This document shows positions 2,606-32,446 of a stretch of DNA of 64,000 nt, one piece after another. Below the pieces are notes generated by a model. That model was not told where the DNA came from, did no database searches, and was given only the letters and a program-made list of their open reading frames with translations. Within the stretch, counting starts at the first letter, position 1. Each line of letters begins with the position of its first letter. The DNA is taken from the NCBI RefSeq assembly GCF_024298765.1, contig NZ_CP101210.1. One strand, given 5' to 3'. Position numbers and translations under genes: made by a program. The stretch is from Escherichia coli (GTDB lineage Bacteria; Pseudomonadota; Gammaproteobacteria; Enterobacterales; Enterobacteriaceae).

Positions 2606-3595
2606 ATGAAACTCGCCGTTTATAGCACAAAACAGTACGACAAGAAGTACCTGCAACAGGTGAACGAGTCCTTTGGCTTTGAGCTGGAATTTTTTGACTT
2701 TCTGCTGACGGAAAAAACCGCTAAAACTGCCAATGGCTGCGAAGCGGTATGTATTTTCGTAAACGATGACGGCAGCCGCCCGGTGCTGGAAGAGCTGAAA
2801 AAGCACGGCGTTAAATATATCGCCCTGCGCTGTGCCGGTTTCAATAACGTCGACCTTGACGCGGCAAAAGAACTGGGGCTGAAAGTAGTCCGTGTTCCAG
2901 CCTATGATCCAGAAGCCGTTGCTGAACACGCCATCGGTATGATGATGACGCTGAACCGTCGTATTCATCGCGCGTATCAGCGTACTCGTGACGCCAACTT
3001 CTCTCTGGAAGGTCTGACCGGCTTTACTATGTATGGAAAAACGGCAGGCGTTATCGGTACCGGTAAAATCGGTGTGGCGATGCTGCGCATTCTGAAAGGT
3101 TTTGGTATGCGTCTGCTGGCGTTCGATCCGTATCCAAGTGCGGCGGCACTGGAACTCGGTGTGGAGTATGTCGATCTGCCAACCCTGTTCTCTGAATCAG
3201 ACGTTATCTCTCTGCACTGCCCGCTGACACCGGAAAACTACCATCTGTTGAACGAAGCCGCCTTCGATCAGATGAAAAATGGCGTGATGATCGTCAATAC
3301 CAGTCGCGGTGCATTGATTGATTCTCAGGCGGCAATTGAAGCGCTGAAAAATCAGAAAATTGGTTCGTTGGGTATGGACGTGTATGAGAACGAACGCGAT
3401 CTGTTCTTTGAAGATAAATCCAACGACGTAATTCAGGATGACGTATTCCGTCGCCTGTCTGCCTGCCACAACGTGCTGTTTACCGGGCATCAGGCATTCC
3501 TGACAGCAGAAGCGCTGACCAGTATTTCTCAGACTACGCTGCAAAACTTAAGCAATCTGGAAAAAGGCGAAACCTGCCCGAACGAACTGGTTTAA
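2606..3595 (+). CDS. ldhA: Fermentative D-lactate dehydrogenase (D-2-hydroxyacid dehydrogenase family)
   Basis: 329-aa ORF; NAD-binding motif GVIGTGKIG; N-terminus MKLAVYSTKQYDKKYLQQVNE matches remembered LdhA. Confidence 0.97.
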   Translation: MKLAVYSTKQYDKKYLQQVNESFGFELEFFDFLLTEKTAKTANGCEAVCIFVNDDGSRPVLEELKKHGVKYIALRCAGFNNVDLDAAKELGLKVVRVPAYDPEAVAEHAIGMMMTLNRRIHRAYQRTRDANFSLEGLTGFTMYGKTAGVIGTGKIGVAMLRILKGFGMRLLAFDPYPSAAALELGVEYVDLPTLFSESDVISLHCPLTPENYHLLNEAAFDQMKNGVMIVNTSRGALIDSQAAIEALKNQKIGSLGMDVYENERDLFFEDKSNDVIQDDVFRRLSACHNVLFTGHQAFLTAEALTSISQTTLQNLSNLEKGETCPNELV

Positions 3596-3602
3596 TCTTG
3601 CC

Positions 3603-3625
3603 GCTCCCCTGCATTCCAGGGGAGC
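3603..3625 (+). terminator. Hairpin downstream of ldhA (9-bp perfect stem gctcccctg / caggggagc); weak T tract
   Basis: Inverted repeat read directly from sequence just 3' of the ldhA stop. Confidence 0.4.
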
Positions 3626-3705
3626 TTATTCAGATAATCCCCAAAGACCTTTCATCCTCTATTCTTAAAATAGTCCTGAATCAGAAACAGTAATTGAGAA
3701 CCACA

Positions 3706-4128
3706 ATGAAGAAAGTAGCCGCGCTTGTTGCGCTAAGCCTGCTGATGGCGGGATGTGTAAGTAGTGACAAAATTGCTGTAACGCCAGAACAGCTACAGCA
3801 TCATCGCTTTGTGCTGGAAAGCGTAAACGGTAAGCCCGTGACCAGCGATAAAAATCCGCCAGAAATCAGCTTTGGTGAAAAGATGATGATTTCCGGCAGC
3901 ATGTGTAACCGCTTTAGCGGTGAAGGCAAACTGTCTAATGGTGAACTGACCGCCAAAGGGCTGGCAATGACCCGTATGATGTGCGCTAACCCGCAGCTTA
4001 ATGAACTCGATAACACCATTAGCGAAATGCTGAAAGAAGGTGCACAAGTGGATCTGACCGCGAACCAGTTAACGCTGGCGACCGCGAAACAGACATTAAC
4101 TTATAAGCTGGCGGATTTAATGAATTAA
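3706..4128 (+). CDS. hslJ: Heat-shock lipoprotein HslJ
   Basis: ORF 3694..4128; start preferred at MKKVAALVALSLLMAGC (lipobox LMAGC), giving 140 aa. Confidence 0.9.
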   Translation: MKKVAALVALSLLMAGCVSSDKIAVTPEQLQHHRFVLESVNGKPVTSDKNPPEISFGEKMMISGSMCNRFSGEGKLSNGELTAKGLAMTRMMCANPQLNELDNTISEMLKEGAQVDLTANQLTLATAKQTLTYKLADLMN

Positions 4129-4391
4129 TAGCTGCCACAGCTCCCGGCGGCAAGTGACTGTTCGCTACAGCGTTTGCCGTTGGGTAATGCACACATCCCA
4201 ATCGCCGTACCATCCAGTTGGCGGGCAACAGAAAGCGAACCGCCGATCATTGCACAATTTGCTTCTCCACTACTGGACATCGACGCTTTTAAACCTGGCG
4301 CTACGTGCGCCGCAGTCGCCTGCTGAACAGGTTCACTACTACACGCCGACAACAATAAAGCGGCACACCCTACCCAAAACGCTGCTCGCAT
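4125..4391 (-). CDS. ydbJ: DUF333-type small lipoprotein YdbJ
   Basis: 88-aa ORF with lipoprotein signal (LLLSACSS); convergent with hslJ, 3' ends overlap by 4 nt. Confidence 0.85.
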   Translation of the reverse strand: MRAAFWVGCAALLLSACSSEPVQQATAAHVAPGLKASMSSSGEANCAMIGGSLSVARQLDGTAIGMCALPNGKRCSEQSLAAGSCGSY

Positions 4392-4664
4392 CTTTTCTTC
4401 CTCTGATCTTCAAGCCAAACGACACCGCCATAAATAATAGGCAGCACAGAGGGCGGCGTCGAGAGCTGTCCTGCGCGTTGCCCCGCATTTTTACTTTTTT
4501 ATGGCTATTTTTTTGCCCTCTGTTTGATCAAAACATTCATTACGCTAATGTGGGGGACACAAAAGCGAAAATGCAGAAGAAAGCCATTTGCTAAAATTGA
4601 ACGATTACTACTGGGCGCGCAGCAATTTCGTGCGCCCCTCATTTGCGCAATGTAAGGGTGTCAT

Positions 4665-25860: not shown

Positions 25861-27474
25861 TCAATGCTTCACAATATACATAGTCCGACTGTACGCCACA
25901 TCTTCCGGGTTATTAATGGGATAACCTTTCAGCCACGGCTTGATTAATCGTCCATTGGTATATTGATAAATTGGTGCAATCGGTGCTTGCTCCATGAGGA
26001 TTTTTTCTGCCGCATTGTAATCGGCATTACGCGCTTTAACGGTATTTTCCGTTGATGCCTGGGCCAGTACTTTGTCGTATGCCGGATTGTTAAAGCGTGA
26101 AATATTTCCTGAATGCGTTGACGTTAATAATGTCAGGAAAGTGGAGGGTTCATTATAATCCCCTACCCACGAGGCTCGGATAACATCAAAATTGCCGGTG
26201 TTACGGCTATCGATATAGGTTTTCCATTCCTGATTTTGCAATTTAACATCTAAGCCAAGGTTCTTTTTCCACATTGATGCTACAGCAATCGCAATTTTTT
26301 GATGGTTTTCTGAAGTGTTATACAAAAGCGTCAGCTTCAGCGGTTTTTGCGGACCATAACCAGCTGCGCTCAACAAAGTTTTTGCCTGCGCATTCAGTTC
26401 TTCCTGACTCATTTGTTCAAACGGCGAAGGTTCCGGCGTAAATCCTGCAGTAACATCTGGTGTAAAATGCCACGCTGGCTTTTCGCCCGTTCCCAACACT
26501 TTTTCGGTCATCAGGCGGCGATCTATCGTCATACTTAATGCCAGGCGAACACGCTGATCGGCCGTCGGCCCTTTTTGCGTGTTAAACGCATAATAATAGG
26601 TCCCGAGCTGTGGCGGCGTATAAACCTGCCCCGGAATATCCTTCAACAGCTTCTGATACATATTTTTCGGGAAGGATTCGGTGATATCAATATCCCCCGC
26701 GAGATAACGCTTAGTGGCTGCGGATTCCTGATTAATTGGCAGGAAGGTCACTTTTTGCAGCACCGTTTTGGCGTTATCCCAATAATGGGTATTCGGTACC
26801 ACGACCAGTTTTTCATTGACTACGCGCTCTTTAAGAACATAAGCGCCATTACCGATCAGATTTCCGGGTTTCGTCCACTCTTTACTGCTTTCTACGTTGG
26901 CTTTTTGCACCGGGAAGAAGGCAAAGTTAGCGGTTAAATTCACAAACCACGGCAACGGTTTATCAAGCTGGATTTTCAAAGTTTGGGCATCAACTGCGGT
27001 GACGCCAAGCTGGTCAGGCGCGGCTTTACCATCAATAATCGCCTGTGCGTTGTTGATTCCCGCCAGCGCGGCAAACCATGCAAATGGCGACAATGTTTTT
27101 GGGTCCACCAGACGTTGCCAGCTGTAGACAAAATCTTGCGCCGTTACCGGTGTGCCATCCGCCCATTTTGCGTTATCGCGCAGGGTAAAAGTCCAGATAC
27201 GGTTGTCATTACTTTTCCACTGAGTCGCAACGCCGGGGACAATCTCCCCTTTCTCGTTCTGATTCACCAGTCCTTCAAACAGATCGCGAATGACCTGAAT
27301 CTCTGGCAGGCCCACGGCTTTAGCGGGATCCAGCGACGCAGGCTCATCTTTAATGTGGCGCACCAGCTCCTGCTTCTCTGCCAGTACTGTGCCGCTCGGA
27401 ACTTCAGCAGCATACGAAAGAGAAATGCTGCTGACCAACAGCGCACAACACGTGACTGAAACAGAGTGCTTCAT
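25861..27474 (-). CDS. mppA: Periplasmic murein tripeptide-binding protein MppA (oligopeptide SBP family 5)
   Basis: ORF 25861..27495; start preferred at MKHSVSVTCCALLVSSISLSYA (signal peptide), 537 aa. Confidence 0.94.
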   Translation of the reverse strand: MKHSVSVTCCALLVSSISLSYAAEVPSGTVLAEKQELVRHIKDEPASLDPAKAVGLPEIQVIRDLFEGLVNQNEKGEIVPGVATQWKSNDNRIWTFTLRDNAKWADGTPVTAQDFVYSWQRLVDPKTLSPFAWFAALAGINNAQAIIDGKAAPDQLGVTAVDAQTLKIQLDKPLPWFVNLTANFAFFPVQKANVESSKEWTKPGNLIGNGAYVLKERVVNEKLVVVPNTHYWDNAKTVLQKVTFLPINQESAATKRYLAGDIDITESFPKNMYQKLLKDIPGQVYTPPQLGTYYYAFNTQKGPTADQRVRLALSMTIDRRLMTEKVLGTGEKPAWHFTPDVTAGFTPEPSPFEQMSQEELNAQAKTLLSAAGYGPQKPLKLTLLYNTSENHQKIAIAVASMWKKNLGLDVKLQNQEWKTYIDSRNTGNFDVIRASWVGDYNEPSTFLTLLTSTHSGNISRFNNPAYDKVLAQASTENTVKARNADYNAAEKILMEQAPIAPIYQYTNGRLIKPWLKGYPINNPEDVAYSRTMYIVKH

Positions 27475-27532
27475 AAGTTTCCCTCTAACCGACATTAAAA
27501 TTGATGCGTAATTATTTGTTTCGCCTTAAAGA

Positions 27533-27562
27533 AATGCAAACAACTTCCATCAAAAAAGTGAC
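27533..27562. promoter_or_regulatory. Copy A of a conserved 30-nt motif (AAATGCAAACAACTTCCATCAAAAAAGTGA) upstream of mppA
   Basis: Near-identical copy at 30643..30672 upstream of mpaA (28 of 30 positions); function unknown. Confidence 0.5.
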
Positions 27563-27810
27563 AAAGGAAGCATCAAATGTTTTAAGTATCAATATATCAA
27601 ATCAGATTTAGTGTAAATAATAGTCTCCAAAATGCGGTAAAGCACATAGAACTCCGAACACTACGTTCGGGCTTCGCACGTTCAAACCCGTTTTCGGTAT
27701 CATAATCAGCATCTGTCGCCATTGTACGAAGAATAAAAAATAACCAAAACGTTGAAAGGAACTGAGAATACGTTAAGAGAAAAATTAAATTAATGTATCA
27801 GCAAGTAGTG

Positions 27811-28710
27811 CTAAACAGCACCTTTATACTTCAGCCTATCTATAAATAATGAGAATGCCGAGCCAGCATGTCGACGGTGTGGATAGTACAGGTGATAACC
27901 GGGTAAATCTGGTGTGAATTTATCCAAAACACGTATCAGTTTTTTTTCTTTAATAGCCCGCTCAACCTGATCATAAGGTAGATACGCCAATCCATGCCCA
28001 TCAATTGCAGCATCAATGATCAGGTCTATCGTATTCAGTAAAAGCTGACCTTCCATGCGAACACGAACTTCACGTCCACCGCGTATTAATCTCCAGCGAT
28101 TTGCTGTACCCGATGTGGGAAGATACAAATTAATTGCCTGATGATCTATTAATTGTGACACTGAGGTTGGAGCACTTCGACGAGAAAAATAATCCGGTGA
28201 GCCAACAATAGCCATTGGTATATCTGGCCCGATTCGAATGGCGATCATATCTTTATCCATCTCCCCACCCAGACGGACGCCTGCATCAAAACGTTCAGAA
28301 ACGACATCGGTCAAACCATAATCAATGGTAAGCTGGATATCAATTTCAGGATGCGATTTCAGGAATGTGCGCATAGCTGGTAACAATATCGTTTTTGCTG
28401 CATGTTCTACAGTAGTAATACGTATTGTCCCGGATGGGCGGTTCTGCAGATCGCTCAGGGATGTCAGGGCAGAATCTATGTCATGCAACATAGGGCCAAG
28501 AACAGACAAAAGATGCTCGCCCGCTTCAGTGGGTACAACGCTGCGCGTGGTTCGTGTCAGAAGCCGCAATCCCAATCGTTCTTCTATACGGCGCACTATC
28601 TGGCTTAAAGCTGACTGCGCCATGCTCAGGCGGGCTGCTGCGCGAGTGAAGCTACGCTCCTCTGCAACGACGACAAACGCCATCAGATCAGCGATTTCTT
28701 CACGCTTCAT
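27811..28710 (-). CDS. pgrR: LysR-family regulator PgrR (YcjZ)
   Basis: 299-aa ORF; N-terminal LysR HTH (FTRAAARLSMAQSALSQ); divergent from ycjY. Confidence 0.92.
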   Translation of the reverse strand: MKREEIADLMAFVVVAEERSFTRAAARLSMAQSALSQIVRRIEERLGLRLLTRTTRSVVPTEAGEHLLSVLGPMLHDIDSALTSLSDLQNRPSGTIRITTVEHAAKTILLPAMRTFLKSHPEIDIQLTIDYGLTDVVSERFDAGVRLGGEMDKDMIAIRIGPDIPMAIVGSPDYFSRRSAPTSVSQLIDHQAINLYLPTSGTANRWRLIRGGREVRVRMEGQLLLNTIDLIIDAAIDGHGLAYLPYDQVERAIKEKKLIRVLDKFTPDLPGYHLYYPHRRHAGSAFSLFIDRLKYKGAV

Positions 28711-28847
28711 TCAGTATCTCCATACAATCTATTAATCATTTAAATGATAGGTCTAATCATGATTTTGGGTCTAATCAACTTAATGATCAATATCTATAGT
28801 GATATCACCAACCGTCAAAACGAACCGACAACTCCATGAGGAACGGA

Positions 28848-29768
28848 ATGATGAATAATAAAGTCAGCTTCACTAACAGCAATAATCCAACCATCTCTTT
28901 GTCTGCAGTGATCTATTTCCCTCCAAAATTTGATGAAACCCGTCAGTATCCGGCAATTGTGGTATCTCACCCAGGTGGGGGCGTTAAAGAGCAAACGGCT
29001 GGAACCTATGCCGAAAAACTGGCGGAAAAGGGATTTGTCACTATTGCTTATGACGCATCTTATCAAGGTGAAAGCGGCGGCGAGCCGCGTCAGTTAGAAA
29101 ACCCATACATTCGTACTGAAGACGTCAGTGCCGTGATTGATTACCTGACAACGCTTTCTTATGTCGACAATAGCCGAATTGGTGCGATGGGAATTTGTGC
29201 CGGTGCAGGATATACAGCCAATGCTGCAATTCAGGATCGCCGCATCAAGGCCATCGGTACTGTTAGTGCGGTCAATATTGGTTCGATGTTCCGTAATGGT
29301 TGGGAAAACAATGTGAAATCTATAGATGCCCTACCATACGTTGACGCGGGTTCAAACGCCCGAACCAGCGATATTAGCAGCAGAGAATACGCCACTATGC
29401 CACTGGCACCAATGAAGGAGTCCGATGCGCCGAACGAAGAACTGCGTCAGGCCTGGGAGTATTACCATACCCCTCGCGCGCAGTATCCAACAGCACCGGG
29501 TTACGCTACTTTGCGCAGCCTTAACCAGATTATTACCTATGATGCTTACCATATGGCGGAAGTGTACCTGACTCAGCCGATACAGATTGTGGCGGGCAGC
29601 CAGGCAGGGAGCAAATGGATGAGTGACGACCTGTACGATCGAGCATCAAGCCAGGATAAACGCTATCACATTGTTGAAGGCGCAAACCATATGGATCTTT
29701 ATGACGGCAAAGTCTATGTGGCTGAAGCAATTTCAGTATTAGCTCCGTTCTTTGAGGAAACTCTGTAA
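28848..29768 (+). CDS. ycjY: Alpha/beta hydrolase (dienelactone hydrolase-like) YcjY
   Basis: ORF 28836..29768; start at ATG 28848 preferred on RBS spacing; start uncertain by 4 codons. Confidence 0.88.
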   Translation: MMNNKVSFTNSNNPTISLSAVIYFPPKFDETRQYPAIVVSHPGGGVKEQTAGTYAEKLAEKGFVTIAYDASYQGESGGEPRQLENPYIRTEDVSAVIDYLTTLSYVDNSRIGAMGICAGAGYTANAAIQDRRIKAIGTVSAVNIGSMFRNGWENNVKSIDALPYVDAGSNARTSDISSREYATMPLAPMKESDAPNEELRQAWEYYHTPRAQYPTAPGYATLRSLNQIITYDAYHMAEVYLTQPIQIVAGSQAGSKWMSDDLYDRASSQDKRYHIVEGANHMDLYDGKVYVAEAISVLAPFFEETL

Positions 29769-29838
29769 TGAAACATATTCAAATCCGTAATAGTGATATG
29801 GCCTGGCATATTGCTGCCAATAATCTGGGAAAAGTTTC

Positions 29839-30477
29839 ATGAAAAATGTACTGATTCTTGGTGCTGGCGGTCAGATAGCCCGCCATGTGATTAATCAACT
29901 GGCAGATAAACAAACCATTAAACAAACTTTATTTGCCCGTCAGCCAGCAAAAATCCACAAACCCTATCCCACTAATAGCAAGATTATTATGGGGGATGTA
30001 CTGAATCATGCAGCACTGAAGCAGGCCATGCAGGGACAGGATGTTGTGTATGCCAACCTTACGGGGGAAGATTTAGATATTCAGGCAAATTCAGTGATCG
30101 CTGCGATGAAAGCCGGTGATGTTAAACGTCTGATCTTTGTTCTTTCCCTCGGTATTTATGATGAAGTTCCAGGAAAATTTGGCGAATGGAATAATGCAGT
30201 TATTGGTGAACCCCTAAAACCATTCCGCAGGGCTGCAGATGCAATTGAGGCTTCTGGACTGGAATATACAATTCTTCGCCCTGCCTGGCTGACTGATGAA
30301 GATATTATTGATTATGAGCTTACCTCACGCAATGAACCATTCAAAGGTACGATCGTATCACGTAAGAGTGTCGCAGCATTAATTACAGATATCATCGATA
30401 AACCTGAGAAACACATTGGTGAGAATATAGGAATCAATCAACCCGGGACTGATGGCGATAAGCCATTCTTCATGTAA
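29839..30477 (+). CDS. NAD(P)-binding Rossmann-fold protein (NmrA/atypical SDR-like); intact form of the locus remembered as ymjC/ymjD fragments in K-12
   Basis: 212-aa ORF; N-terminal dinucleotide-binding motif LILGAGGQIA. Confidence 0.8.
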   Translation: MKNVLILGAGGQIARHVINQLADKQTIKQTLFARQPAKIHKPYPTNSKIIMGDVLNHAALKQAMQGQDVVYANLTGEDLDIQANSVIAAMKAGDVKRLIFVLSLGIYDEVPGKFGEWNNAVIGEPLKPFRRAADAIEASGLEYTILRPAWLTDEDIIDYELTSRNEPFKGTIVSRKSVAALITDIIDKPEKHIGENIGINQPGTDGDKPFFM

Positions 30478-30642
30478 ATCAATTATATAGCTACCATCGT
30501 ACTGTACTATGTGCAGTACGATTTATTAAACTTATTAAGGTGAACTGATCAATCAGATGCGATTAACATGTGTAGAACCAGTAAGAATAAAATACGCCAT
30601 GTATATAACATTACGACAATTCTAATATCTGCACATCAATGA

Positions 30643-30672
30643 AAATGCAAACAACTTCCGGCAAAAAAGTGA
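30643..30672. promoter_or_regulatory. Copy B of the conserved 30-nt motif (AAATGCAAACAACTTCCGGCAAAAAAGTGA) upstream of mpaA
   Basis: See copy A. Confidence 0.5.
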
Positions 30673-30767
30673 TACAAGATCGATAACATAGCGTTGAAGA
30701 AAAGGATTTGATAATCCGCAAAATTTGCACAACACTGCCTGTAATACTTCCTGAACCAGAGACGATC

Positions 30768-31470
30768 ATGACCGTAACTCGCCCACGCGCCGAACGCGGC
30801 GCATTTCCGCCCGGTACAGAACATTACGGACGTTCATTATTGGGCGCGCCGTTAATCTGGTTTCCGGCCCCTGCAGCCAGTCACGAAAGTGGTTTGATTC
30901 TGGCTGGCACTCACGGTGATGAAAACTCTTCGATCGTCACGCTCTCCTGTGCTCTGCGGACTTTGACACCGTCTTTGCGCCGCCATCATGTGGTGCTGTG
31001 TGTGAATCCTGACGGCTGCCAGTTAGGGTTACGGGCCAATGCTAATGGTGTGGATTTAAACCGAAACTTTCCGGCGGCGAACTGGAAGGAAGGTGAAACC
31101 GTTTATCGCTGGAACAGCGCCGCTGAAGAACGTGATGTCGTATTGCTGACAGGTGACAAACCTGGCTCCGAACCTGAAACCCAGGCGCTGTGCCAGCTTA
31201 TACACCGCATTCAACCTGCCTGGGTGGTCTCATTCCACGATCCGCTGGCCTGTATTGAAGATCCCAGACACAGCGAATTAGGTGAATGGCTGGCCCAGGC
31301 GTTTGAATTGCCTCTGGTAACCAGCGTCGGTTATGAAACGCCTGGCTCTTTCGGTAGTTGGTGTGCAGATCTCAACTTGCATTGCATCACCGCAGAGTTT
31401 CCACCCATCTCCTCCGACGAAGCCAGCGAAAAATATCTCTTTGCGATGGCAAACTTGCTGCGCTGGCATC

Positions 31471-31496
<26 letters not shown>
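30768..31496 (+). CDS. mpaA: Murein peptide amidase A (M14 zinc carboxypeptidase family)
   Basis: ORF 30708..31496; start preferred at MTVTRPRAERGAFPPG (242 aa). Confidence 0.93.

Positions 31497-32446
<950 letters not shown>

Follow-up and report, generated by a model that had tools for sequence, protein, structure and literature searches.

The stretch of DNA analysed here (the window) comprises 64,000 nucleotides from Escherichia coli (contig NZ_CP101210.1). Between ycjY and mpaA it carries an uninterrupted gene of 212 codons, as stated by the original prediction, which had been made from the sequence alone. This gene, called SDR in the following, is the last gene of a cassette that includes ycjY, the divergently oriented regulator gene pgrR and the remnant of a further gene, Hyd2, and that is bracketed by a direct repeat. 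The features of the locus are summarized in Table 1.

Table 1. Features of the SDR locus and their positions in the window
Feature	Position	Strand	Remarks
Left direct repeat, core AAATGCAAACAACTTCCATCAAAAAAGTG	27532..27568	+	Native mppA-mpaA spacer sequence; brackets the cassette
pgrR (ycjZ), LysR-family cassette regulator	27811..28710	-	Divergent from ycjY; Pfam HTH_1 and LysR_substrate; RefSeq pgrR
Dyad ATCATTTAAATGAT, candidate PgrR operator	28735..28748	.	pgrR-ycjY control region; unique in the window
ycjY, first alpha/beta hydrolase	28848..29768	+	RefSeq start 28848; 310 aa if read from the in-frame ATG at 28836
Remnant ORF MKHIQIRNSDMAWHIAANNLGKVS*	29768..29842	+	24 codons; equivalent of K-12 ymjD (21 codons); in-frame deletion remnant of Hyd2
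Intact SDR gene	29839..30477	+	212 codons; ATG start; PF13460 atypical SDR; final gene in the cassette operon
Segment absent from K-12 MG1655	29977..30641	.	665 bp; SDR from codon 47 to the stop, and the next 164 bp of spacer
Hairpin	30496..30522	+	19 nt past the SDR stop; stem of 12 bp with a UAU loop, followed by UUAUUAAACUU; deleted in K-12
Right direct repeat	30643..30679	+	Right edge of the insertion; start of the native mpaA upstream region
mpaA (murein tripeptide amidase)	30768..31496	+	Neighbor, not member, of the cassette; NCBIfam NF007897 equivalog, E 3e-144

The SDR ORF is a genuine gene and no chance reading frame: at least 1000 public contigs encode exactly this protein, its identity to a crystallized Shigella protein is 98%, and its pN/pS is 0.06–0.15 among E. 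coli alleles (0.12 against Pseudocitrobacter). It is already catalogued: RefSeq lists it as “SDR family oxidoreductase”, and the crystal structure of the Shigella ortholog dates from 2011. In a Pfam search, PF13460 (NAD_binding_10) matched residues 8–189 over profile positions 1–184 of 184 (E 2.7e-54), a full-length match with 184.3 bits over a gathering threshold of 27.2. Epimerase and NmrA gave weaker matches, the latter (PF05368; 46 bits, E 5.5e-12) being restricted to residues 2–100 and profile positions 3–104 of 298. Membership in the NmrA-like family was rejected, as the protein has 212 amino acids and no C-terminal NmrA domain.

An alignment of 34 family members from three phyla revealed the residues that characterize this protein. 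The N-terminal dinucleotide-binding motif GAGGQIA occupies residues 8–14, of which G8, A9 and G11 are invariant, as is R34. The position of R34 after β2 suggests recognition of the 2′-phosphate, and the SDR probably prefers NADPH. In these sequences, the lysine of the YxxxK motif is absent and an invariant A132 is found at the aligned position. The region that would hold the Ser...Tyr-x-x-x-Lys triad of classical or extended SDRs, an assignment we rejected, reads P-[FY]-R-x-A-A, and S103 is variable (S, A, T or C). Because the catalytic triad is missing, the protein can be classified only as an atypical SDR. Within the block LGIYDEVPGKFGEWNN, residues 112–119 (GKFGEWNN) are invariant and the remainder nearly so; this loop is family-specific and positioned where a substrate lid would be.

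Structure prediction and a fold search had both been suggested at the outset. The AF2 model (pLDDT 89.9) shows the alternating β-α-β elements of a Rossmann fold, and its best neighbors in Foldseek are 3QVO, the Veillonella structures 3R6D, 4HNG and 4HNH, human BLVRB, YlbE and ChuY. The top match, 3QVO (TM 0.88/0.95), is a Rossmann-fold NAD(P)-binding protein of Shigella flexneri solved by structural genomics. It is the 98% identical protein mentioned above, aligned over all 212 residues, and effectively the same protein. Four of the five substitutions are K48Q, V69I, G93C and G115V; the fifth is likewise conservative. The Veillonella parvula SDR (3R6D, 4HNG, 4HNH, 4IPT; 29–30% identity, TM 0.86–0.90) is likewise a single domain of 210–220 amino acids and shares GAxGQIA, the Arg after β2, RLTWL/RPAWL and the C-terminal GxPGTxxDKP tail, but not the loop sequence YDEVPGKFGEWNN.

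Alignment to K-12, also part of the original proposal, located the lesion in that strain: relative to the window, MG1655 lacks a segment beginning at SDR codon 47, and hence has no intact copy of the ORF, as predicted. What remains as ymjC are SDR codons 1–46 fused to 14 foreign codons, and in RefSeq the remaining 138 bp are listed as a pseudogene (“NAD-dependent dehydratase, missing C-terminus”). The survival of this 5′ part of the gene in K-12 shows that the change was a deletion and not a gain. The pairwise alignment of the window with locus L001 leaves the breakpoint ambiguous by one or two A residues, and with a junction overlap of just 1–2 nt we discarded microhomology as the cause. The deletion ends at most 1 bp from the right direct repeat, and neither the junction alignment nor the repeat search revealed a repeat that accounts for its stopping at the cassette edge.

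The second K-12 fragment has a different origin. While both ymjC and ymjD had been taken as remnants of the NAD(P)-binding gene, this holds for ymjC only: ymjD is the same remnant of a second hydrolase, Hyd2, that is found in the window. Codons 1–18 of the remnant ORF are identical to the N-terminus of Hyd2 in locus L004 and are joined in frame to the last Hyd2 codons, with ∼869 bp missing relative to the long allele. Its start overlaps the ycjY stop (TAATG) and its stop overlaps the SDR start (ATGA). The SDR gene thus lies downstream of and in the same orientation as ycjY with translationally coupled junctions, which is the arrangement of the K-12 ycjY operon. The window differs from the “ycjY-ymjDC-mpaA” of K-12 in that its reductase gene is complete, and the operon and regulon described in the literature under this name derive from a doubly deleted allele. 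The idea that the window holds the ancestral functional gene is correct insofar as the SDR is undeleted and selectively kept; the locus as a whole is not fully ancestral, as it shares the Hyd2 deletion. In the annotation of this locus, ymjC and ymjD should be treated as remnants of two different genes.

Hyd2 is an alpha/beta hydrolase of 310 amino acids and a paralog of YcjY. It is intact (933 bp) in strains 13KWH46, CUVET18-1475 and L26, and in this full cassette ycjY runs 1 nt into Hyd2, which is followed by SDR after a gap of 17 bp. YcjY itself matches the Pfam families DLH, Peptidase_S15, Hydrolase_4 and Abhydrolase_1 as well as PDB entry 5XB6, “uncharacterized protein YcjY” (E 1.9e-199). 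In NCBIfam, YcjY comes closest to the UilS lactonase family, but its 87 bits are far below the cutoff of 400; we therefore rejected YcjY as an AHL lactonase and take the match only as pointing to esterase or lactonase chemistry, not to membership. The ATCA-N6-TGAT core of the candidate operator dyad is kept in the cassettes of a Klebsiella plasmid, Pseudocitrobacter and alpha-proteobacteria, and ycjY/ycjZ was among the PgrR sites recovered by genomic SELEX in K-12 (PMC5934670).

SDR and mpaA are separated by 290 bp, which contain the hairpin listed in Table 1. The RNA fold of positions 30470–30560 has a minimum free energy of –20 kcal/mol (z = –2.09), and the position of the hairpin as well as ∼85 nt past the SDR stop are common to the copy on a K. 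aerogenes plasmid. A scan of this spacer for consensus terminators and promoters returned no terminator on the plus strand and no convincing promoter. The hairpin was not called because its U-tract is too weak, which makes a terminator role hypothetical; it is a candidate for either a weak intrinsic terminator or a 3′ stabilizer of the cassette transcript. As it is not a canonical terminator, transcription may read through from SDR into mpaA in window-type strains. An Rfam scan of positions 27400–31000 (E ≤ 1) found no riboswitch or sRNA in the spacer, its single result being a sub-threshold chance match in pgrR (RAGATH-10, 24 bits versus 41). An alignment of outgroup spacers shows that 125 bp of ancestral sequence are preserved upstream of mpaA; they contain a conserved block, TTTGCACAACACTGC, at 30724–30738. 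The MpaA proteins of E. albertii and E. fergusonii fall into the same 90% cluster as that of E. coli.

Among 5,426 complete E. coli genomes, about 23% carry the full cassette with Hyd2 and about 30% the window type (no Hyd2, intact SDR), while 42% are of the K-12 type (exact junction in 2292 genomes, at ≥99% identity in 2280) and 3% (168 genomes) have an empty site. The 665-bp segment is present in 2900 genomes (∼53%), which hold the undeleted allele. Decay also occurs in other forms: besides the deletion, Hyd2 shows a frameshift in O157:H7 and a nonsense mutation in KO11FL, the SDR gene is disrupted by an IS in MSHS 133, the strain with the most similar flanks, and pgrR is frameshifted in strain L26. 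Together with the loss of SDR in all K-12-type genomes, these cases would suit a history in which the SDR is a dispensable, decaying passenger of an old horizontal transfer, intact by chance and without a current role now that its partner Hyd2 is gone. We consider this unlikely, since the SDR is under continuing purifying selection across phylogroups: the low pN/pS values given above include window-type alleles (0.15 for the window against Nissle), and of 29 full-length copies in a spread sample, annotation treats 28 as intact.

Three observations identify pgrR-ycjY-Hyd2-SDR as one cassette inserted into the old divergent mppA/mpaA spacer. First, mppA and mpaA are directly divergent with ∼180 bp between them in the 168 empty-site E. 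coli genomes and in seven outgroup genomes, among them Citrobacter, Pseudocitrobacter faecalis and Enterobacter mori. Second, the repeat search revealed a direct repeat of 29–37 nt flanking the cassette (37 nt, 86% identity, spacing 3111). Its pattern occurs at exactly two sites, with none expected by chance. Strain EC488, which has the empty site, carries one copy of the repeat, and a single copy is also recognizable in Citrobacter, Pseudocitrobacter and Enterobacter. In ST648-type strains, the empty site may be either primary or the product of excision between the repeats. Third, the GC3 of the cassette genes is 0.35–0.47 versus 0.53–0.55 for mpaA, ycjG, tpx and tyrR, and 0.50 for mppA on the other flank. 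A queH-like fragment lies between the left repeat and pgrR (∼27639–27713); blastn and tblastn searches of 80 cassette-bearing loci gave no meaningful trace of its donor.

The same four genes are syntenic outside E. coli. The amino acid identities of LysR/YcjY/Hyd2/SDR are 87/93/86/83% in Pseudocitrobacter, 73/85/64/69% in Afipia and 71/82/82/69% in Mesorhizobium; Hyphomicrobium shows the same synteny, and the four genes also occur in alpha- and beta-proteobacteria. In the cassettes of these four genera, pgrR orthologs (71–87% identity) occupy the same position, as they do on Klebsiella plasmids. These plasmids are conjugative and carry the four genes with identical sizes and spacing between unrelated flanks. 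Pairs of hydrolase and SDR are also found in Burkholderiales, Stenotrophomonas, Rhodobacterales, Rhizobiales and Bacteroidota, and additional neighbors include an OYE-type flavin oxidoreductase, a flavodoxin-like-fold reductase and an MFS transporter. In none of 80 loci is the SDR accompanied by mpaA, ycjG or mppA (within 4 kb) or by tpx, and there is thus no conserved co-occurrence with the murein-peptide recycling genes. Homologs of the SDR in Lactobacillaceae (∼50% identity) have neither an adjacent hydrolase nor an adjacent regulator; the lack of the former indicates that the reductase can work alone.

These data bear on the proposal, made in the original prediction, that the SDR is an ancestral part of a PgrR-controlled peptidoglycan-peptide locus and as such a handle on the biology of MpaA. 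It would then belong to a salvage operon ycjY-SDR-mpaA and act on a murein-derived metabolite, a step lost by K-12. The gene adjoins mpaA in the same orientation, and the synonymous divergence of the cassette at this site is core-like (pS 0.04–0.08), which indicates a residence long enough for functional integration. Reports on K-12 assign mpaA to the PgrR regulon as ycjY-ymjDC-mpaA (PMC5934670; PMC3946193), together with ycjG and ycjXF-tyrR (PMC5934670), and over-expression of ycjY perturbs cell division, leading to filamentation (PMC3614548); both would fit a cell-wall role. We nevertheless regard this proposal as quite improbable. The adjacency of mppA and mpaA without the cassette in the outgroups and 168 E. 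coli genomes contradicts an ancestral association, and in at least 25 other genomes and on plasmids the partners of the SDR are a LysR regulator and two hydrolases, with no murein-peptide gene nearby. At the locus itself, a spacer with a hairpin lies between SDR and mpaA, mpaA retains its native upstream region, and E. coli strains without the reductase (42%) or the whole cassette (3%) have kept mpaA, ycjG and mppA. As the cassette was acquired horizontally and landed beside mpaA, the SDR probably owes its link to peptidoglycan recycling to the accidental choice of insertion site, and with its conserved partners elsewhere being the regulator and the hydrolases, it makes a poor handle on MpaA.

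The closest characterized structural relatives of the SDR are reductases of the same fold. Human BLVRB, a biliverdin-IX-beta/flavin reductase (1HDO, 1HE3), has a PF13460-type fold and the same size (TM about 0.78–0.81, 20% identity), although its substrate-pocket residues are not conserved in the SDR. BLVRB catalyzes NADPH-dependent hydride transfer without the classical Tyr-Lys pair of SDRs. The anaerobilin reductase ChuY/ShuY (5FFQ, 5GUY; phmmer E 3e-6, TM 0.76–0.82, about 20% identity) is likewise an accessory-genome reductase in a dedicated operon, but in its case the chu operon for haem utilization of E. coli and Shigella; no haem or flavin genes were found in the neighborhood of the SDR. 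Across reductases of the BLVRB/ChuY type, Foldseek returned TM values of 0.75–0.82 (E 1e-11 to 1e-15). It is very unlikely that the protein is instead a non-enzymatic, NmrA-like redox sensor that binds NAD(P)(H) and modulates PgrR or another regulator, as might be read from the weak N-terminal NmrA match, the missing Tyr/Lys pair and the deposition of 3QVO as “NmrA family protein”: the full-length match is to NAD_binding_10 as opposed to about 100 of 298 positions for NmrA, BLVRB and ChuY are true reductases that also lack YxxxK, the invariant loop is located at the would-be substrate lid, and the Lactobacillaceae homologs have no regulator beside them.

We therefore favor, as a reasonably probable explanation, that the SDR is a functional NAD(P)H-dependent, BLVRB/ChuY-like PF13460 reductase within a mobile cassette of PgrR, two paralogous serine hydrolases and SDR, which would serve as a detoxification or catabolic module and not in murein recycling. 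The cassette entered the divergent promoter region that mppA and mpaA shared ancestrally, in an early E. coli lineage, and ∼30 nt of the spacer were duplicated. Stepwise decay would then have removed Hyd2, leaving the ymjD remnant and the state of the window, and subsequently the 3′ four-fifths of the SDR gene together with the downstream hairpin, leaving ymjC and the state of K-12. By analogy to their families and judging from the neighboring genes, on which our view of the chemistry of SDR, YcjY and Hyd2 is based, PgrR could sense a small molecule and derepress the operon, an ester or lactone would be opened by the hydrolases YcjY and Hyd2, and the product or a related compound of electrophilic or planar nature (a quinone, enone or carbonyl, for example) would receive a hydride that the SDR transfers from NADPH. 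The cassette as a whole would then be a detoxification or catabolic module rather than a murein-peptide recycling step; this substrate class, the preference for NADPH, the cooperation of SDR and hydrolases and the independence from mpaA are what we infer, while the data show the integrity of the gene, its fold and cofactor-type motifs, the conservation of the cassette, the polarity of the insertion, the deletion junctions and the purifying selection. Because Hyd2 is absent from the window, the pathway may be incomplete in this strain. Work on the function of the cassette is best begun with a strain in which none of the four genes is damaged, such as 13KWH46, or with one of the Klebsiella plasmid copies, rather than with the window and its missing hydrolase.

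More tentatively, and with some doubt, we suggest that the name of PgrR as a “peptidoglycan recycling regulator” and the operon ycjY-ymjD-ymjC-mpaA are by-products of the K-12 allele. By taking the 3′ end of SDR and the terminal hairpin, the K-12 deletion could have directed transcription from PycjY straight into mpaA, while PgrR would really be dedicated to the mobile hydrolase-hydrolase-reductase cassette. If true, window-type and full-cassette strains would transcribe mpaA chiefly from its own ancestral promoter, and what PgrR governs in them would be an unrelated pathway for detoxification or catabolism, built on ester/lactone and reductase chemistry. Statements on the PgrR-mpaA regulon that are based on K-12 may not transfer to the ∼53% of E. 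coli (about 2,900 of 5,426 genomes) with the undeleted allele, and pgrR-ycjY-Hyd2-SDR is best treated as one horizontally acquired, plasmid-borne cassette outside the murein-peptide recycling cluster.

The original prediction of an uninterrupted 212-aa reading frame between ycjY and mpaA was borne out by the ORF listing, the raw sequence of the window and Pfam. The product of this gene (SDR, an atypical NAD(P)H-binding short-chain reductase) matches the whole profile of PF13460 (NAD_binding_10) with an E value of 2.7e-54, followed by partial matches, at the N terminus, to NmrA, Epimerase and 3Beta_HSD; in NCBIfam, no model scored at or above its cutoff. The neighboring genes had also been named correctly: the LysR family regulator PgrR, the alpha/beta hydrolase YcjY and MpaA (equivalog NF007897, E 3e-144), with ycjG and then tpx beyond mpaA. 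At least 1,000 public contigs encode the exact SDR protein, named "SDR family oxidoreductase" or "NAD(P)H-binding protein". The finding is real, and the gene is an ordinary, already annotated one.

Features of the SDR locus, in window coordinates
Feature	Coordinates	Strand	Description
Direct repeat bracketing the block	27532-27568 and 30643-30679		37 nt, 86% identity
Position of queH fragment	27639-27713	-	between left repeat and pgrR stop
ATCA-N6-TGAT dyad	28735-28748		pgrR-ycjY control region
megablast query	28700-31600
End of ycjY	29768
Remnant ORF	29768..29842		24 codons, in ycjY-SDR gap
Segment compared with L004 3492-3535	29823-29850		around SDR start
SDR	29839..30477	+	212 codons, ATG start
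Gap in K-12	29977..30641		665 bp
Overlap at ISVsa5 borders	30024-30032		9 bp
Hairpin	30496-30522		12-bp stem, 19 nt past SDR stop
Conserved block TTTGCACAACACTGC	30724-30738		~30 nt upstream of mpaA start
Start of mpaA	30768

A megablast search of 5,426 complete E. coli genomes matched the locus in 5,417 of them. K-12 MG1655 showed only 77% query coverage, split into two pieces. In the alignment, the gap (1-2 nt ambiguity, at a run of A) begins exactly at SDR codon 47, and the remainder of the gene is lost together with 164 bp of downstream spacer. What is left encodes 60 aa, consisting of 46 SDR codons followed by KMQTTSGKKVIQDR; its first 138 bp are a RefSeq pseudogene "missing C-terminus". 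This 60-aa remainder is ymjC. Because the authentic 5′ end of SDR is kept in K-12, the difference is a deletion in K-12, not a gain in the window strain, and the claim that K-12 carries only a remnant of SDR holds.

The second remnant, ymjD, has a different origin. Some genomes, such as OkiPb01687, contain ∼880 extra bp between ycjY and SDR, annotated as a second alpha/beta hydrolase (Hyd2) with 41% identity to YcjY. In the window, this gap measures 70 nt, and codons 1-18 of the short ORF within it are identical to the Hyd2 N-terminus, joined in frame to the last Hyd2 codons. The junction is shared by K-12, where a stop comes earlier and leaves a 21-codon Hyd2 remnant, which is ymjD. It was therefore wrong to regard ymjC and ymjD as pieces of one gene. 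Since Hyd2 is lost and SDR kept, the window represents an intermediate state. Hyd2 is intact (933 bp) in strains 13KWH46, CUVET18-1475 and L26, frameshifted in O157:H7 and interrupted by a stop at codon 13 in KO11FL. The long allele of OkiPb01687 (L004) has 12 extra bp (ATGAGAAATATT) directly before the SDR start, which form a tandem near-repeat with ATGAAAAATGTA, offer an alternative upstream ATG (MRNIMKNV...) and are missing from both the window and K-12. Some database entries give a 216-aa form of SDR.

Among the 5,426 genomes, the segment deleted in K-12 is present in 2,900 (53%) and Hyd2 in 1,272 (23%), so that by subtraction ∼30% carry the window-type allele. The exact K-12 junction occurs in 2,292 genomes (42%), nearly all at ≥99% identity, which indicates a single inherited event. 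A further 168 (3%) have an empty site with mppA directly facing mpaA, and ∼1% show other lesions. In MSHS 133, for example, ISVsa5 (IS4 family, IS10-like) lies inside SDR (2640-4616 of its locus, L003), with flanks 100% identical to the window and a 9-bp overlap between the two matching pieces. Nissle 1917 shows the reverse of the K-12 state: SDR is intact and mpaA (3569-4297 of locus L002) is an annotated pseudogene with an internal stop. In strain L26, the three structural genes are intact and pgrR is frameshifted; should PgrR act as a repressor, the cassette would be expressed constitutively in this strain.

The label "ancestral" for SDR does not hold. In the empty-site strain EC488, which is without pgrR, ycjY, Hyd2 and SDR, mppA and mpaA stand back to back, 182 bp apart. 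The same arrangement was found in three Citrobacter, three Pseudocitrobacter faecalis and one Enterobacter mori genomes, each with an SBP_bac_5 gene divergent from Peptidase_M14, then ycjG, tpx and tyrR. The direct repeat bracketing the four genes has a core of 29 nt with two mismatches, where none is expected by chance, and corresponds to native spacer, single-copy in EC488 and recognizably so in the outgroups. The GC3 of the four genes is 0.35-0.47, compared with 0.53-0.55 for mpaA, ycjG, tpx and tyrR and 0.50 for mppA. The whole pgrR-ycjY-Hyd2-SDR block is thus an insertion, and an old one within E. coli, since pS among SDR alleles is core-like (0.04-0.08). The 168 empty sites could be either primary or repeat-mediated excisions. 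On its right side, the K-12 deletion stops no more than 1 bp from where the right repeat begins (30641-30643), i.e., the insertion boundary, and the left junctions of the ymjD and ymjC deletions both end in C[CT]AATA; neither coincidence is accounted for by a repeat or by microhomology. Inside the block, related strains (L004, L085) carry a RefSeq-annotated 75-93 bp fragment of queH (epoxyqueuosine reductase), which may be donor-derived; it had no match among the 80 cassette-bearing loci described below.

We scanned contigs from one genome per species with the SDR protein and searched the resulting 80 loci by tblastn with the window neighbors. The scan returned no other Escherichia, no Salmonella and no Citrobacter. 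The best relatives were found in a Pseudocitrobacter MAG (83%) and in alpha-, beta- and gamma-proteobacteria (58-70%), followed by Bacteroidota and Lactobacillaceae (45-55%). The arrangement LysR | YcjY - Hyd2 - SDR recurs in Pseudocitrobacter (87/93/86/83% for LysR/YcjY/Hyd2/SDR), Afipia (73/85/64/69%), Mesorhizobium (71/82/82/69%) and Hyphomicrobium. In Stenotrophomonas, Paraburkholderia, Caballeronia and Achromobacter, YcjY-Hyd2-SDR is combined with another LysR, and in Paracoccus, Rhizobium, Shinella and many Bacteroidota SDR adjoins a Hyd2-type or YcjY-type hydrolase. MpaA, YcjG, MppA and Tpx were found in none of the 80 loci, and the proposed link of SDR to peptidoglycan does not hold. 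Conjugative plasmids of K. pneumoniae and K. aerogenes carry all four genes with identical spacing and the same lengths (900, 921, 933 and 639 bp) between unrelated flanks, one adjoined by an IS110 transposase. The dyad is preserved between E. coli and the copies in alpha-proteobacteria, so the regulator and its probable operator travel with the cassette, which is a conserved, mobile unit. Two PLSDB records with SDR (H154, H155) are 4.9 Mb each, evidently mislabelled chromosomes, and therefore inflate E. coli plasmid counts for SDR.

Conservation was assessed with 34 SDR homologs from three phyla. Invariant residues are G8, A9 and G11 of the GAxGQIA motif, R34 after beta-2, at a position that would be typical for recognition of the NADP 2′-phosphate, and R147 and W150 of RPAWL (P148 and L151 nearly so). 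In the highly conserved LGIYDEVPGKFGEWNN block (residues 104-119), G105, E109 and G112-N119 are invariant and L104, I106, Y107 and V110 nearly invariant. Conservation extends to the NKPGTDGDKP tail, and an invariant Ala replaces the YxxxK lysine. Confidence in the AF2 model is high (pLDDT 89.9, pTM 0.89) and lower at residues ∼101-130, a probable lid. Foldseek ranked 3QVO first, then a Veillonella SDR (3R6D, 4HNG, 4HNH, 4IPT), with further matches to BLVRB, YlbE, 4JGB and ChuY (TM 0.75-0.90 for the listed neighbors), in agreement with a PDB sequence search. Among the E. coli alleles, pN/pS ranges from 0.06 to 0.15; the comparison with Pseudocitrobacter gave 0.12.

Our literature and database search found no biochemical function for SDR, Hyd2 or YcjY (PDB 5XB6, "uncharacterized protein"). 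Weak hints come from the best NCBIfam match of YcjY, the UilS acyl-homoserine-lactonase family (87 bits, far below the cutoff of 400), and from genes directly after SDR: an Old-Yellow-Enzyme-type flavin oxidoreductase in Paraburkholderia and Achromobacter, a flavodoxin-like-fold reductase plus RibD_C in Stenotrophomonas and an MFS transporter in Afipia. Weak, too, are the enrichment of "ymjC, putative oxidoreductase" in lactic-acid-resistant isolates in a pan-genome study (PMC9602453) and the filamentation upon ycjY over-expression (PMC3614548). It is reasonably likely that SDR is a cofactor-dependent reductase within this cassette; that the substrate is a small electrophilic or planar compound is far more tentative. 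In the reading that we favor, SDR would reduce this substrate with NADPH, acting together with the ester/lactone hydrolases under PgrR control, and the cassette would serve in detoxification or catabolism.

Within the intact cassette, the 1-nt overlap of ycjY and Hyd2 is followed by a gap of 17 bp between Hyd2 and SDR; the remnant ORF of the window shares nucleotides with the gene on either side (TAATG with ycjY, ATGA with SDR). The distance from the SDR stop to the mpaA start is 290 bp, with 125 bp of the ancestral mpaA upstream region kept, TTTGCACAACACTGC among them. The hairpin in this spacer (MFE -20 kcal/mol, z = -2.1 in its 91-nt context) was not called by a consensus terminator scan because of its weak U-tract; the K. 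aerogenes plasmid copy shares the first ∼85 nt past the SDR stop, including the hairpin position. TTTGCACAACACTGC is invariant in E. coli, Citrobacter, Pseudocitrobacter and Enterobacter within an otherwise divergent spacer and is probably a native regulatory element of mpaA or mppA. In K-12, the hairpin is gone and only 81 bp separate the ymjC stop from mpaA. PMC3946193 and PMC5934670 list ycjY-ymjDC(-mpaA) of K-12 as an operon that belongs to the regulon of PgrR, the "regulator of peptidoglycan recycling". The deletion in K-12 possibly strengthened or created PgrR control of mpaA, and what has been described as the PgrR regulon on the basis of K-12 may mirror a mobile cassette in a derived allelic form with two deletions.
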